Part shown: piece by piece, positions 343 through 9,249 of the stretch
Layout: every line of letters begins with the position of its first letter
Numbering within the stretch: the stretch's first letter is position 1
From: an uncultured Planctomycetota bacterium
Lineage (GTDB): Bacteria; Planctomycetota; Planctomycetia; Gemmatales; Gemmataceae
DNA: 64,000 nt
Assembly: GCA_963849325.1 (NCBI GenBank)
Contig: CAWKHF010000012.1
Coordinates: forward strand, 832,001-896,000
Direction: 5' to 3'
Notes under the pieces: generated by a model
What the model was told of the DNA's origin: nothing
What the model saw: the letters and a program-made list of their open reading frames with translations, nothing else
The model's database searches: none
Position numbers and translations under genes: made by a program

Positions 343-416
343 GTCCCCGTAGCTCAATTGGATAGAGCGTCGGCCTCCGGAGCCGAAGGTTACAGGTTCG
401 ACTCCTGTCGGGGATA
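343..416 (+). tRNA. tRNA-Arg(CCG), canonical stand-alone copy
   Basis: Cloverleaf: acceptor GTCCCCG/CGGGGAT, anticodon arm TCGGC-CTCCGGA-GCCGA, T-arm ACAGG-TTCGACT-CCTGT; CCA not encoded. Confidence 0.95.
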
Positions 417-510
417 CTGAAAAACCGCTTCCGACGACCGAACGGGACCGGCTGTCAGGAGCTTCGGGCAAGGCGAATATCCCCCGAAGTTCTTGGAACC
501 TAGGGTACCC

Positions 511-5631: not shown

Positions 5632-6405
5632 TCACGGCTTCGTGGAGACGTGGCCGTCGATCGCCTGCAACACCTCGTCCGGCGAGAGCCGGGCGATCAC
5701 CTCGGGGGAACGATACAGCCAGCGCACGGTGCCGTCCTGGTCCACGAGGATCGTCGTTGGCGCGTCGGTATCGCCCCCATCGGGTGCCGAATGCGGATGA
5801 ATGACTCCCGCCGCCTCGGACAGACCGCGCTGCTCATCGGCGAGCACGAGCAGGTGCGGGAAGTCCGCCTGTGTCTTCCCGGCGTCCTCGAGTCCTTCCA
5901 CGGAAACCACCAGGACGCGGACGTTCCGCTGGGCGAAGTCTTCGTGCCGACGTTCGAGCTGACCTAGCTCGATCATGCAAAAGGGTCACCAGCGGCCGCG
6001 GAAGAAGACCAGCACGCTGTTCTGCTCGCCGATCAGGTTTTGCTGCGTGAACGGGGTGCCGTCCGCCCGCGCCGACGCGAATGGGGGAAAGGGCTGCCCA
6101 ACAACGATCGGCCCTGTGTACGCCGGCAGTCTCGCCGCTAGCAGGAACGTCCACGCGGCGCCGGCAAGCAGCGTCACCAAGACGAGGGCAAGTACACGCC
6201 AGACGGAACGCCTCTGCCAGAGCGAGACGACCACGAAAACCAGGCCGACGGTTGCCATGATCGGCACGTACCAGGGTGCCGTCAGGCGCTGCGCCTGGAT
6301 TTGAAGGACGTAGCCGATTACACCCAGGGCGGCCAAAGTGAGGCCCAGGGCCAGGAAGAGGCGGCCGGGCGAGCGACGCGGTGCGACAGCGGATGAAGTA
6401 GTCAT
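5632..6405 (-). CDS. Membrane-anchored AhpC/TSA (peroxiredoxin-like) protein, probable selenoprotein with UxxC
   Basis: ORFs 5986-6405 and 5632-5976 are in frame across TGA(5988-5986): FFRGRW-TGA-PFC-MIELGQL; downstream PTTILVDQDGTVRW. Confidence 0.85.
5954..5972 (-). promoter_or_regulatory. Candidate bacterial SECIS hairpin
   Basis: TCGAGCT-AGGTC-AGCTCGA begins 13 nt after the in-frame TGA. Confidence 0.6.
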
Positions 6406-6476
6406 GTCGTCATTCTATGACAGGGGCGGTTGGCGAGGGAGGCCGCACATCCGCTGCGTCCCAGGGTGGAAGGAAG

Positions 6477-6548
6477 AGTGTCCGGCGGGAGTCGCACCCG
6501 CCTATCCGACGCGGCAGGTCGGTGCCTCGGCTGCTCGGCCACGGACAC
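6477..6548 (-). tRNA. tRNA-Gly(GCC), array
   Basis: Acceptor GTGTCCG/CGGACAC, anticodon arm CCGAC-CTGCCGC-GTCGG; variant T-loop TGCGACT. Confidence 0.8.
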
Positions 6549-6553
6549 AAGAG

Positions 6554-6623
6554 CAAGGACGGAAGGAGTCGAACCCTCGGCGCCTGTTTTGGAGGCAGGC
6601 TGCTCACCCAGGAGCACGCCCTT
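6554..6623 (-). tRNA. tRNA-Trp(CCA), array
   Basis: Anticodon loop CTCCAAA, T-arm GAGGG-TTCGACT-CCTTC. Confidence 0.8.
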
Positions 6624-6633
6624 GTCGAACCAG

Positions 6634-6706
6634 CTGCCCCGGCAGGACTCGAACCTGCAACCGTCTCGTTAACAGCGAGCCGCTCTACCGTTTGAGCTAC
6701 AAGGCA
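6634..6706 (-). tRNA. tRNA-Asn(GTT), array
   Basis: TAGCTCAAACGGTAGAGC D-arm, loop CTGTTAA, GCAGG-TTCGAGT-CCTGC. Confidence 0.92.
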
Positions 6707-6726
6707 AGCAGACAGAAATGCCTCAG

Positions 6727-6799
6727 AGACGCCGGCAGGAGTCGAACCTGCTTCGATGTCGGGTTGCGGCCGACCGCCTGGCCGTCCGGCCCCGGCGTC
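6727..6799 (-). tRNA. tRNA-Cys(GCA), array
   Basis: GACGCCG/CGGCGTC acceptor, GTCGG-CCGCAAC-CCGAC, U73 discriminator. Confidence 0.82.
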
Positions 6800-6811
6800 A
6801 TAACAGACAAG

Positions 6812-6884
6812 GGCCGGCGGTGGGACTCGAACCCACTTGGTCCGCGTTACGAAGGCGGTGCCCGGCCCGTCGAGCATCGCCGGC
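6812..6884 (-). tRNA. tRNA-Thr(CGT), array
   Basis: GCCGGCG/CGCCGGC acceptor, loop TTCGTAA, GTGGG-TTCGAGT-CCCAC. Confidence 0.8.
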
Positions 6885-6892
6885 TTTGGTCA

Positions 6893-6963
6893 GCAGCCAG
6901 TGCTGGTGTCGAGCCAACTGGACCGAGGTTCAGAGCCTCCGTCCCCTGCCGAGGGCCTGGCTG
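6893..6963 (-). tRNA. Degenerate tRNA-Gln(CTG), array
   Basis: CAGCCAG/CTGGCTG acceptor, GAGG-CTCTGAA-CCTC, short D-arm, T-loop CTCGACA. Confidence 0.6.
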
Positions 6964-6972
6964 ACGTGCGAG

Positions 6973-7045
6973 GGTGGCCGGCGGGAGTCGAACCCGCACA
7001 ACCCCGGTTCACAGCCGGGTCTCGCTGCCGCTTGAGTTCGGCCAC
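6973..7045 (-). tRNA. tRNA-His(GTG), array
   Basis: GTGGCCG/CGGCCAC, CCCGG-CTGTGAA-CCGGG, C73. Confidence 0.88.
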
Positions 7046-7047
7046 AG

Positions 7048-7119
7048 TGCTTCAACCTGGAATCGAACCAGGAACTCGGCCTTCGCAGGACCGCGTGATG
7101 TCCCTTTCACCATCGAAGC
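7048..7119 (-). tRNA. tRNA-Arg(GCG), array
   Basis: CGGTC-CTGCGAA-GGCCG anticodon arm, CCTGG-TTCGATT-CCAGG. Confidence 0.85.
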
Positions 7120-7126
7120 AACACAG

Positions 7127-7198
7127 TACCCCGGCCAGGAATCGAACCTGGACCTGCTCCTTCGGAGGGAGCCATGATGTCCCTTTCACCACCAGGGC
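7127..7198 (-). tRNA. tRNA-Arg(CCG), array
   Basis: GCTCC-CTCCGAA-GGAGC, CCAGG-TTCGATT-CCTGG. Confidence 0.88.
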
Positions 7199-7210
7199 AA
7201 CACGAACCAG

Positions 7211-7293
7211 TGACCAGGGAGGGACTTGAACCCTCACGCCGCGGTGGGCACGGTCTTCTGAGGACCGCGTGTCTGCCATTCCACCACCTGGCC
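7211..7293 (-). tRNA. tRNA-Leu(CAG), array
   Basis: GGTGGAATGGCAGACAC D-arm, loop CTCAGAA, long variable arm. Confidence 0.92.
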
Positions 7294-7305
7294 ATTTACC
7301 AACAG

Positions 7306-7378
7306 TGGACCGTGGAGGGAGTTGAACCCTCATTTGCCGGGTGCAAGCCGACCGTCTTCCCCGTTAGACGACACGCCC
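7306..7378 (-). tRNA. tRNA-Ala(TGC), array
   Basis: GTCGG-CTTGCAC-CCGGC, G3:U70-compatible acceptor with one bulge. Confidence 0.78.
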
Positions 7379-7392
7379 GGGAGAAAAAGCAG

Positions 7393-7465
7393 TGGCCCCG
7401 GTGGGGATCGAACCCACATCGCCCTGTTTAAGAGACAGGTGCTCCGCCAATTGAGCTACAAGGCC
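7393..7465 (-). tRNA. tRNA-Lys(CTT), array
   Basis: TAGCTCAATTGGCGGAGC, CCTGT-CTCTTAA-ACAGG. Confidence 0.92.
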
Positions 7466-7475
7466 ATTCGGGCAG

Positions 7476-7555
7476 CGTGTCGGGCAGGAGTTGAACCTGC
7501 ACAGCGAATGCGGGTGGGTTACAGCCACTTGGGCTCGCCAGTGCCCAGCCGACAC
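7476..7555 (-). tRNA. tRNA-Tyr(GTA), first gene of the array
   Basis: GTGG-CTGTAAC-CCAC, long variable arm, GCAGG-TTCAACT-CCTGC. Confidence 0.85.
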
Positions 7556-7574
7556 GTCTGGTCCGTACATCTTG

Positions 7575-7602
7575 TAGACGTAGGCACCCGGCCGGAGGTT
7601 CA
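7575..7602 (-). promoter_or_regulatory. ECF-sigma-type promoter upstream of the tRNA array
   Basis: TGAACC-N16-CGTCTA about 20 nt before tRNA-Tyr. Confidence 0.6.
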
Positions 7603-7822
7603 CGGATCCAAGCGAGATTTTTCGAGAAGCAACGGGGGCCACATGGGCAAAGTGGCAAAGCGCGTGCGTCTCCATCGGATGTACCGGATAAGCCTGTTGC
7701 GCCGGAGAGGAGTCAATTCCGTCCTTCCTCCATGCCGATAAAGAGTGATGGGCCGCGCGATCTGCCCGCATTGGTCCCGAGACGGGGAAGGCGCGGAAAG
7801 CATCGGCTCGGGAGGGAACGTC

Positions 7823-9249
7823 ATGCTGTTCTGCTCGTTGGAATTCCTGTTCTTCTTCAGCGCCATTCTGCTCGTCTACTGGCTCATCCCCGGCAAGACG
7901 GCTCGCATCTGGTTGCTGCTGGTGGCCAGTTTCTGCTTCTACGCGGCGTGGAACACCTGGCTGGCCTTGCTCATCAGCGTCACGACGGTCATGGATTATT
8001 TCCTCGCCCTGGGCATCGACCGCGGCACCTCGGAGGTCCGGCGCAAGCTGCTCCTGGCCGTCAGTCTCGTGGTCAACCTCGGCGTGTTGTGCTATTTCAA
8101 GTACGCCAACTTCTTTCTCGATTCGCTATCCGAGATTCTGCACGCGCTCGGCTCGTCGGCATCGCTGCCGCTGCTGGAAGTGATCCTTCCGGTCGGTATC
8201 TCCTTCTACACCTTCGAGGCCATCAATTACACCGTGGACGTCTACCGTCGCAAGGCGCCCGCGGAGCGGAACCTGGGGCACTTCATGCTGTTCATCCTGT
8301 TCTTTCCTCATCTGGTGGCCGGGCCGATCGTCCGCGCCCGCGACTTTTTGCCGCAGATCAAGCGGGCCAAGCGCTTCAGCTGGCCGCGCATGCAGCTGGG
8401 GCGCAGATCTTCCTCATGGGGCTGTTCAAGAAGTTGGCCATCGCCGATCGCATGGCCCTCTACGTCGATCCGGTGTTCCACGACCCGTTGTCGTTCCACT
8501 CGAAAGCGGTGTGGTGGGCGGTGCTGGCCTACGCCCTGCAAATTTACTGCGACTTCTCCGGCTACACCGACATGGCCATCGGCACGGCGCACATGCTCGG
8601 CTACAAACTGGCCGAGAACTTCAACATCCCGTACATCTCGGCCAACGTCTCGGAGTTCTGGCGGCGCTGGCACATCTCGCTGTCGAGTTGGCTGCGCGAT
8701 TATCTGTTCATCCCACTGGGCGGCAGTCGCGGCGGCACCTGGAAGACCAACCGCAACCTGCTGATCACGATGACGCTGGGCGGCCTGTGGCACGGAGCGA
8801 GCTGGACGTTCGTCTTCTGGGGCGTGCTGCACGGCCTGCTGCTGATCGGGCACAAAGCGTTCCAGGGATTTTGCACGAAACGGCCGATGCTCGAGCGCGT
8901 ACTGCGCTCGGCGCCGGGGACGTTGCTGCGCATGGCGCTGACGTTTGCCAGTGTGTGCGTCGGTTGGGTCTTCTTCCGGGCGACAACCTTCGCCATCGCC
9001 GCCGGTGTGCTGCGACGCCTGGTCAGCTTCACTCGTGCCGGGGCGCCGACGCCGATGCCGATCACCGGCTTCGTCCTGACAATCGTGCTGGTGGTGCTGT
9101 GCCATTTGGTTCGCCGCTTCGACCTGTGGCGGCGATGGCAGCCGAGCCTGCCGGCCCCCGTGCTCGGCTTCAGCTACGCCGTGGCGGTGACGCTGGCGCT
9201 GATGCTCGCCCCATCGGGGACCAAGCCGTTCATCTACTTCCAGTTCTGA
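7823..9249 (+). CDS. MBOAT O-acyltransferase (AlgI/PatA-like), one frameshift near 8400
   Basis: LPVGISFYTF, GPIVR, YCDFSGYTDMAIG, EFWRRWHISLSSWLRDY, GLWHGA, FIYFQF. Confidence 0.92.

Follow-up and report, generated by a model that had tools for sequence, protein, structure and literature searches.

Introduction

The closest described counterpart of the locus reported here is the trn operon of Anabaena PCC 7120, a long tRNA array (L-array) that is induced by translational stress and of whose 26 tRNAs 23 are charged, according to the study concerned (Santamaria-Gomez et al., 2021; PMC8421152). The same study lists the Planctomycetes among the phyla with long tRNA arrays, and Supplementary Dataset 1B of that study gives arrays of 9 and 13 genes for Gemmata sp. 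SH-PL17 (PMC8421152). In a second survey, tRNA array units were required to hold at least 20 tRNA genes, and in this work the Planctomycetes appear among the phyla with a few such arrays (Tran et al., 2016; PMC4758250). In this study, we describe a compact array of tRNA genes at positions 6476 to 7555, on the minus strand, of a 64,000-nucleotide stretch of DNA (referred to as the window) from an uncultured soil planctomycete of the family Gemmataceae (assembly GCA_963849325.1, contig CAWKHF010000012.1, positions 832,001 to 896,000). We show that it is a real, conserved accessory tRNA array of an already known kind, the long-array class, and it adds a well-documented planctomycete lineage to this phenomenon. 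To our knowledge, long arrays have been studied functionally in one cyanobacterium only. No dedicated description of tRNA arrays in Gemmataceae or other Planctomycetota was found in the literature searched, which yielded only the two surveys named above. Similar arrays are known from cultured Gemmataceae (Gemmata sp. SH-PL17), which makes the proposals put forward here testable at the bench.

Our favoured interpretation, which we hold with somewhat more belief than doubt, is that the genes are co-transcribed as a single accessory tRNA operon. This operon, a piece of 13 genes from a long-array lineage of the Gemmataceae, would encode mostly working tRNAs and would in part belong to the core tRNA set through its Asn gene. 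Like the trn operon, the array is co-oriented, tight and non-periodic; it may also resemble it in being largely supernumerary and patchy in its occurrence, and would for the most part supply isodecoders rather than many new anticodons (PMC8421152). Unlike that operon, it is one of three chromosomal arrays (of 13, 13 and 7 genes) over which the accessory set of its genome is split, it has neither a plasmid location nor a neighbouring homing endonuclease, and it holds the only Asn tRNA gene that was found (PMC8421152). With the array units described in the second survey, it shares a high density and a preference for redundancy of core isoacceptors; unlike them it has 13 genes, and it is its homologues in the related genomes G016 (20 genes), G006 (25) and G021 (45) that qualify (PMC4758250). 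Throughout the text G000 denotes the studied assembly, G001 to G023 and similar labels denote related genomes, C1, C2 and so forth are contigs of G000, and labels beginning with L stand for extracted loci or contigs.

Structure of the array

Thirteen tRNA genes were called by ARAGORN in the window, of which 12 make up the array and one is a dispersed Arg(CCG) gene at 343–417. The 12 genes follow one another in the same orientation, all on the minus strand from 6476 to 7555, in the transcription order Tyr(gta), Lys(ctt), Ala(tgc), Leu(cag), Arg(ccg), Arg(gcg), His(gtg), Thr(cgt), Cys(gca), Asn(gtt), Trp(cca) and Gly(gcc). They are separated by spacers of 1–19 nt, with the exception of an 87-nt gap between His and Thr (6885–6971), which contains a thirteenth unit, here termed unit X. 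All genes of the array thus lie on one strand and near enough to each other for a single operon, an orientation that is expected of L-arrays (Santamaria-Gomez et al., 2021). The same is true of their non-periodicity, as the array contains a single 79-nt tandem pair (Arg-Arg, 73–76% identity) and beyond that only T-arm motifs repeat. No open reading frame (ORF) is embedded in it. The density of 12 ARAGORN genes in 1.08 kb is far above chance when set against 92 genes in the 8.16 Mb genome; with unit X included, 13 units in 1,080 bp amount to about 12 per kb, which exceeds the minimum of 2 per kb for a tRNA array unit, and their number is below the 20 genes that such a unit must have (Tran et al., 2016).

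A sequence-only reading that preceded this work had proposed a compact array of 13 tRNA genes. Its coordinates, gene order and anticodons proved right for 12 units, all of which were called by ARAGORN and reached the curated gathering score of the Rfam tRNA model RF00005 (29 bits) in a genome search with this model only, with scores ranging from 29.2 to 62.5 bits. In a search of the whole window with Rfam at gathering score and default filters, 8 of the 12 genes pass, and a stricter ARAGORN setting loses Tyr and Trp. In a permissive Rfam scan, the tRNA-Sec model beats the tRNA model for Tyr (36.2 bits), Trp (32.9 bits) and Cys (28.0 bits), all of these scores being below the tRNA-Sec cut-off of 47 bits. 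For the thirteenth gene, which had been given as Gln(CTG), the claim holds in part: neither ARAGORN nor Rfam calls it, but a conserved tRNA-like unit with a Gln anticodon is present. The same reading had pointed out that CCA is not encoded; this is true of the array but is not distinctive, as the dispersed tRNA genes whose sequences were written out also lack it. The dinucleotide C-T follows the discriminator base in 13 of 13 array units and in 8 of 13 dispersed genes written out.

A thirteenth, non-canonical unit

Unit X (6893–6963, minus strand) is a non-canonical, tRNA-Gln-like element, for which no call was obtained with ARAGORN at two settings nor with Rfam at E values up to 10; because of the latter result it was not filed as a member of RF00005. 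In three genomes the homologous arrays carry it, highly conserved, immediately upstream of Thr(CGT). Further homologues were sought in metagenomes with a 19-base motif of unit X, which matched 46 stretches, and 25 of these were dropped as chance matches in coding DNA without tRNAs. The other 21 are true homologues, 20 of which are situated within co-oriented tRNA rows on 19 different contigs, one having been caught twice; beside the homologue L029 no tRNA was called, and L039 is the same contig as that of the G016 array. Once identical sequences had been collapsed and L069 and L070, in which the unit is cut by the contig end, had been excluded, the alignment comprised 18 distinct sequences.

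The anticodon is CTG in 13 of these sequences and TTG in 5, and both are Gln anticodons. The sequences can be folded into a cloverleaf with a 7-bp acceptor stem, a 4-bp D stem with a loop of 3–4 nt (4 nt in the window), a 6-bp anticodon stem, and a T arm with a 5-bp stem and the loop CTCGACA. In this fold 97.7% of the cells pair, as compared with 29–55% in slid-partner controls, and the changes are mostly one-sided but pair-preserving, with double changes in 2 pairs only. In its anticodon and T arms, unit X is similar to canonical array Gln genes, and one homologue, L034, was called as Gln(ttg) by ARAGORN. We read unit X as a putative divergent, non-canonical tRNA-Gln gene. A conserved gene resembling a Gln tRNA would then go unreported by ARAGORN and Rfam in this window, and since both programs miss it, standard annotation may undercount the tRNA genes in these genomes.

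Homologous arrays and their surroundings

The array in the window is 77–79% identical over approximately 900 nt to arrays of G016, G006 and G022, so that arrays of this type are found in four species and three genera of one family (Gemmataceae, Planctomycetota). The homologous arrays hold 20–25 genes, with 20 in G016 and, in G006, 25 by ARAGORN, of which 23 lie in the main run; at one locus of G021 there are 45 tRNA genes. Their core order is Tyr-Lys-Ala-Leu(cag)-(His/Arg/Arg)-X-Thr-Cys-(Phe)-Asn-(Ser)-Trp-Gly. A second array type, with the order Gly-Gln(ttg)-Leu(caa)-Tyr-Glu-Leu(cag)-Gln(ctg)-Arg(gcg)-Thr-Cys-Asn-Ser-Ile-Val, occurs in the congeners G007 and G009 and partly in G002. The array on contig C1 of the studied genome looks like this second type with its middle missing, and the isoacceptors that it lacks are those that the window array has. 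Both the C1 array and that of G007 have a DAGK/YegS gene as a neighbour, which suggests vertical descent of the second array type.

The surroundings of the arrays are less constant. The window array is flanked by TadE/Tad-like pilus genes and by MBOAT and GDSL genes, the G016 array by cupin and cation efflux genes, and the G006 array by topoisomerase and aldo-keto reductase genes; judged by Pfam families, the flanks of window-type arrays differ in every genome, and those of the relatives include the planctomycete-typical families PSCyt, PSD1 and DUF1501. In three congeners, the 12 kb upstream of the orthologue of the MBOAT gene contain neither tRNA genes nor Tad genes. Taken together, the shared array types and the differing flanks point to arrays that are old in the family and have since been rearranged or moved, a scattered distribution that might reflect either transfer or vertical descent with rearrangement. 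A conserved neighbouring protein gene was considered and rejected, as the ORFs downstream of the window array gave no tblastn match at any other array locus and the flanking Pfam families differ between genomes.

Some of these observations could also be expected if the array were the cargo of a phage, plasmid or other mobile element that had integrated at this site. Its occurrence is patchy (a scan of the species genomes gave the exact Ala motif in only 3 further records), the flanking genes are different in each genome, and no array precedes the MBOAT orthologue in the three congeners. Phage tRNA clusters, such as those of mycobacteriophages and of T4/T5-type phages, are likewise compact rows of tRNA genes. 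However, blastn searches of phage and plasmid collections returned matches to the generic Asn gene only and no place that covered 80% of the query, and two array motifs had 0 exact matches in viral contigs. PHROGs matched none of the 3 window flank ORFs tested and 2 of 24 flank ORFs of the relatives, both in L015 and both to unknown-function families or a sigma factor, and thus gave nothing for 25 of 27. In addition, no integrase or transposase gene stands beside the window array, and the statement of the sequence-only reading that no phage genes flank it is upheld by the Tad-like, MBOAT and GDSL genes found there. On these results the array does not fall among the phage or plasmid tRNA clusters, and we hold an origin as mobile cargo to be extremely improbable.

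Relation to the genomic tRNA gene set

The studied assembly, which is 84.7% complete in 14 contigs and has a G+C content of 65%, contains two other larger arrays in addition to that in the window. The first, at C4:433741–435175, has 13 genes (Phe, Lys ttt, Trp, Lys ctt, Pro ggg, Pro cgg, Leu taa, Asp, Leu gag, Val cac, Ala cgc, Ala ggc and Arg tcg) and the second, at C1:515629–516193, has 7 (Gln ttg, Leu caa, Glu ctc, Glu ttc, Ser gga, Ile and Val gac); a small cluster of 3 genes is present on C5. Only Lys(ctt) and Trp(cca) are found in more than one of the three larger arrays, which jointly represent 19 amino acids, that is all except Met. Their median tRNA-model scores are 49, 48.8 and 49.8 bits, and combined they score lower than the dispersed genes with a Mann-Whitney p of 4.9e-8.

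For 11 of the 13 units of the window array, a dispersed gene with the same anticodon is found elsewhere in the assembly, and Asn(GTT) and Arg(GCG) are array-only. Array genes and dispersed genes with the same anticodon are 53–77% identical, with the exception of a stray array-type Leu(CAG) on C7. This solitary gene (C7:207741–207823, 38.3 bits) is 94% identical to the array Leu gene and appears to be a dispersed copy of it; an ordinary Leu(CAG) gene is present at C10:473794. The sequence-only reading had concluded that the array is a second tRNA set from the strong difference between its Arg(CCG) gene and the housekeeping-type copy at 343..417 (plus strand, 69.8 bits, called by ARAGORN). The difference was confirmed, with 48 of 74 positions (65%) identical. 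The conclusion stands insofar as the array is a divergent extra set, with 11 of 13 units duplicated at 53–77% identity and with lower scores, but not for Asn(GTT) and Arg(GCG). These would be the only copies of their isoacceptors, which had been named as an outcome that would speak against a second set, so that this outcome applies to one or two of the 13 units; in the case of Arg(GCG), whose anticodon is array-only in the assembly, an Arg(ACG) gene elsewhere reads the same codons. For 11 of 12 amino acids the codon used most is matched by an array anticodon, the exception being Ala.

No second Asn(GTT) gene was found by ARAGORN or Rfam over all 14 contigs, and the array copy (6633..6706, minus strand) is the only one; it is canonical, called by ARAGORN and, with 62.5 bits, has the highest score of the array. 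Two candidates for a hidden Asn gene were rejected: the 'tRNA-Stop(tta)' on C2, whose anticodon is truly UUA, and an Asn-like tRNA on C5 with the anticodon GCU. In G007, G002 and G016 the best BLAST match to the window Asn gene is array-borne or lies in the array region, and the other matches in these genomes are at most 78% identical or are short fragments, those at 78% accompanying a match to the dispersed Arg(tct) gene of G000. Because Asn(GTT) and the Arg(GCG) anticodon occur nowhere else in the assembly, the array may be partly essential, and through the sole Asn(GTT) gene found it appears to have joined the core tRNA set of this genome. An accessory array that has apparently taken over an essential tRNA bears on the question of whether arrays of this kind are carried along as cryptic passengers or are integrated into the translation machinery.

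Three observations concern the other arrays themselves. The C4 array contains gaps of 84–102 nt that may hide further units missed by ARAGORN, and transposase-like fragments (HTH_32/HTH_21) are present downstream of it; near the C1 array there is a gene for an XhoI-type restriction endonuclease.

Features of the individual genes

All units of the array are encoded on the minus strand and all but unit X were called by ARAGORN. The first gene, Tyr(GTA) at 7475..7555, has a short variable arm and scores of 38.1 bits with RF00005 and 36.2 bits with the tRNA-Sec model. It is followed by Lys(CTT) at 7392..7465, a canonical cloverleaf of 62.3 bits, and by Ala(TGC) at 7307..7378, with 49 bits and a flagged mismatch. 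In the Ala gene, a G in the 3' strand of the acceptor stem must be bulged out for G3:U70 and A73 to be retained; the gene is near-invariant in 10 distinct homologues. Leu(CAG) at 7210..7293 has a long variable arm, and Arg(CCG) at 7126..7198 (55.4 bits) is a tandem duplicate of the adjacent Arg(GCG) at 7047..7119 (54.9 bits). In His(GTG) at 6972..7045 (48.2 bits), C73 and a T at position -1 mean that no G-1 is encoded; T at -1 and C73 are found in 5 of 5 sequences of this His type, and G-1 is encoded by the dispersed His gene and by 5 of 6 array His genes of other types. Beyond unit X come Thr(CGT) at 6811..6884 (33.9 bits), with a conserved C:C at 31:39, Cys(GCA) at 6726..6799 (37.2 bits), with U73, and, after Asn, Trp(CCA) at 6553..6623, which is 70–71 nt long and scores 29.2 bits with RF00005 and 32.9 bits with the tRNA-Sec model. 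The predicted 5-bp D stem of Trp abuts the acceptor stem directly, and most homologues have a 6-bp anticodon stem. The last gene, Gly(GCC) at 6476..6548 (49 bits), has the T loop TGCGACT.

The discriminator base is A in Lys, Ala, Leu and Arg, C in His, U in Cys and Gly, and G in Asn and Trp, and for these nine amino acids it agrees with bacterial identity rules. Compensatory double changes among homologues were seen in 6 of 20 predicted pairs of Lys, 6 of 22 of Trp and 5 of 22 of Tyr, indicating that the cloverleaf is conserved in these genes. The anticodons are conserved across the array homologues, and the unusual features of Ala, Trp, unit X and the His gene that lacks G-1 recur across several genomes or contigs and are not random.

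A number of findings weigh against the interpretation that we favour. The median tRNA-model score is 49 bits for the window array and 64.9 bits for 53 dispersed genes (Mann-Whitney p = 1.6e-4). The window Cys gene has C33 where 11 of 11 other distinct sequences have T, the Thr discriminator is C as opposed to T in 13 of 13 homologues, the Tyr discriminator is G as opposed to A in 11 of 12 aligned homologues, the Gly gene has G at position 55, as do 2 of 9 other distinct sequences, and the His gene does not encode G-1. With such deviations at normally fixed or identity positions, some units may be weak or dead. The covariation in unit X is not significant when compared with shuffles (38 of 500 reach the observed score), and the 3' half of the X sequences was preset by the search motif. 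The claim of a sole Asn gene rests on a 14-contig assembly that is 84.7% complete, and because of this degree of completeness an Asn gene may be missing from it. No sigma-70-like site was found in 5900–7900 and no terminator consensus on the transcribed strand, a single terminator-like site being on the wrong strand. Lastly, the evidence for expression described below consists of assembled contigs of relatives, in which DNA carry-over is possible, and includes no silent control stretch.

Several of these points would be consistent with the idea that the array is a decaying relic, acquired horizontally and eroding, of which only Asn and a few canonical members still work. The low tRNA-model scores, the changes specific to this genome (at U33 of Cys, the discriminators of Thr and Tyr, and G55 of Gly), the His gene that lacks G-1, the failure of standard tools to recognize unit X and the presence of 13 genes rather than the 20–25 of the relatives might all be explained in this way. 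However, the odd features of Ala, Trp, unit X and His are conserved across genomes and contigs, stems have been kept by compensatory changes, anticodons have been retained, and RNA-library contigs exist for every unit region. We judge decay of this kind to be improbable.

The same conserved departures from the standard cloverleaf could alternatively mean that the non-canonical members (unit X, Trp, the bulged Ala and the His gene that lacks G-1) serve a role outside translation, either as toxin decoys or as substrates of aminoacyl-tRNA-dependent enzymes, and a further argument for it could be that three members score higher with the tRNA-Sec model than with the tRNA model in the permissive scan. 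Such a role seems very unlikely to us, since no linked enzyme gene is conserved beside the arrays, whose flanks differ per genome, and since the anticodons and discriminators resemble those of ordinary decoding tRNAs.

Proposed expression and function of the array

Contigs from RNA libraries (four metatranscriptome runs of four studies) are 90–100% like the array and exist for every unit region. Some of them bridge neighbouring genes, namely Arg(ccg), Leu and Ala at 7124–7361, His, Arg(gcg) and Arg(ccg) at 6970–7171, Cys, Thr and unit X at 6771–6933, and Gly and Trp at 6473–6582. These bridging contigs fit polycistronic precursors in close relatives. The contigs cover 6453–7574 only, and the uncovered flanks are uninformative because the contigs are those of relatives with other flanks. 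The organism itself was not found in public sequencing runs, with no more than 0.15 of the sampled words present in any run.

Under the interpretation of an accessory operon, the 13 genes, which are on one strand with spacers of 1–19 nt, would be transcribed together, presumably from a promoter region upstream of the first gene (7556..7731, minus strand). Maturation of the precursor would most likely involve cleavage by RNase P and by a 3' endonuclease, followed by enzymatic addition of CCA, which we propose because no tRNA written out from this genome encodes CCA. Most of the products would be aminoacylated and would function as tRNAs, and the array would thus add divergent isodecoders for the most-used, G/C-ending codons. 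Together with the C4 (13 genes) and C1 (7 genes) arrays, it would extend the accessory genes to 19 amino acids with little overlap. We would further expect expression to be constitutive rather than stress-induced only.

It is on this last point that our interpretation departs from the idea, put forward in the sequence-only reading, of an inducible backup, which would be silent or low in normal growth and switched on when translation is impaired or when anticodon nucleases cut the housekeeping tRNAs. The architecture is that of published long arrays, of which the Anabaena member is induced when antibiotics target the ribosome and is regulated together with the RNA ligase gene rtcB (PMC8421152), and the array tRNAs are sequence-divergent isodecoders. 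In addition, the genome has an RNA-repair cluster with Hen1_L, Thg1-like and RlaP genes on another contig, and Thg1-like genes, present in only 5 of 41 related genomes (G000, G006, G009, G022 and G023), occur in genomes that all gave strong array-type matches, the tRNA rows themselves having been read in the first four but not in G023. However, the search for regulatory repeats gave none, the array and the repair cluster are not linked, and the Thg1-like gene is missing from many relatives that do have arrays. The anticodon loop of Lys, for which the comparison was made, is identical in the array and dispersed copies, and so does not present a change by which a nuclease would be evaded. The only Asn tRNA gene found is located in the array, which is therefore probably transcribed at a basal level or more, and this argues for constitutive transcription. 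We consider an inducible backup unlikely, if by no means negligible.

A more speculative proposal, to which we attach only slight probability, is that Gln with its mini-D arm, the linkerless Trp, the bulged Ala and the His gene that lacks G-1 form a semi-independent decoding set, which could be used when standard tRNAs are attacked or damaged and would act alongside the Hen1/Thg1-like/RlaP cluster. In such a set, C73 of the His tRNA might be the template for the addition of G-1 by the Thg1-like enzyme. The idea that the Thg1-like gene goes with the His type that lacks G-1 was rejected, as G001 has this His type without a Thg1-like match, and G006 and G022 have the enzyme, yet the His genes of their arrays encode G-1.

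Additional observations

The cluster referred to above is located at G000:C5, approximately 827000–832700 (L075), and comprises on one strand genes for Hen1_L, a small ORF, a Thg1-like protein (Thg1 and Thg1C), a HEAT-repeat protein, an unassigned 446-aa ORF and RlaP. Several unusual tRNA genes were noted elsewhere in the genome. The gene with the anticodon UUA, which would read the stop codon UAA, is at C2:189639–189710, is 72 nt long, scores 52.7 bits and has a 6-bp anticodon stem; a gene with this anticodon is also present in the related metagenome arrays L036, L041 and L059. Bacterial Ser tRNAs normally have a long variable arm. The gene at C5:716836–716909 (60.3 bits), with the anticodon GCU for Ser codons, has a short one, and its body is 85% like that of the array Asn gene. 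At C6:820794–820903, a 110-nt Rfam tRNA match of 48.9 bits that was missed by ARAGORN resembles a tRNA of the Leu(UAA) type whose anticodon loop is enlarged by an insert of about 26 nt.

Two protein genes next to the array also deserve mention. The MBOAT ORF in the window (7732–9249, plus strand) was compared with its orthologues at L083–L085, in which the parts corresponding to the N-terminal 230 and the C-terminal 280 residues are in different frames or separated by stops, and because of this the gene model or start in the window may be wrong. On the other side, the region 5632–6405 (minus strand), which has the same orientation as the array and starts 70 nt beyond its downstream end, is one frame whose codon 140, within a W-U-P-F-C redox motif, is an in-frame TGA. 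When read through, it gives a 257-aa membrane-anchored protein with AhpC-TSA and Redoxin matches that span the TGA, and it is a candidate selenoprotein gene; a tRNA-SeC gene is present on C6 of the same genome.

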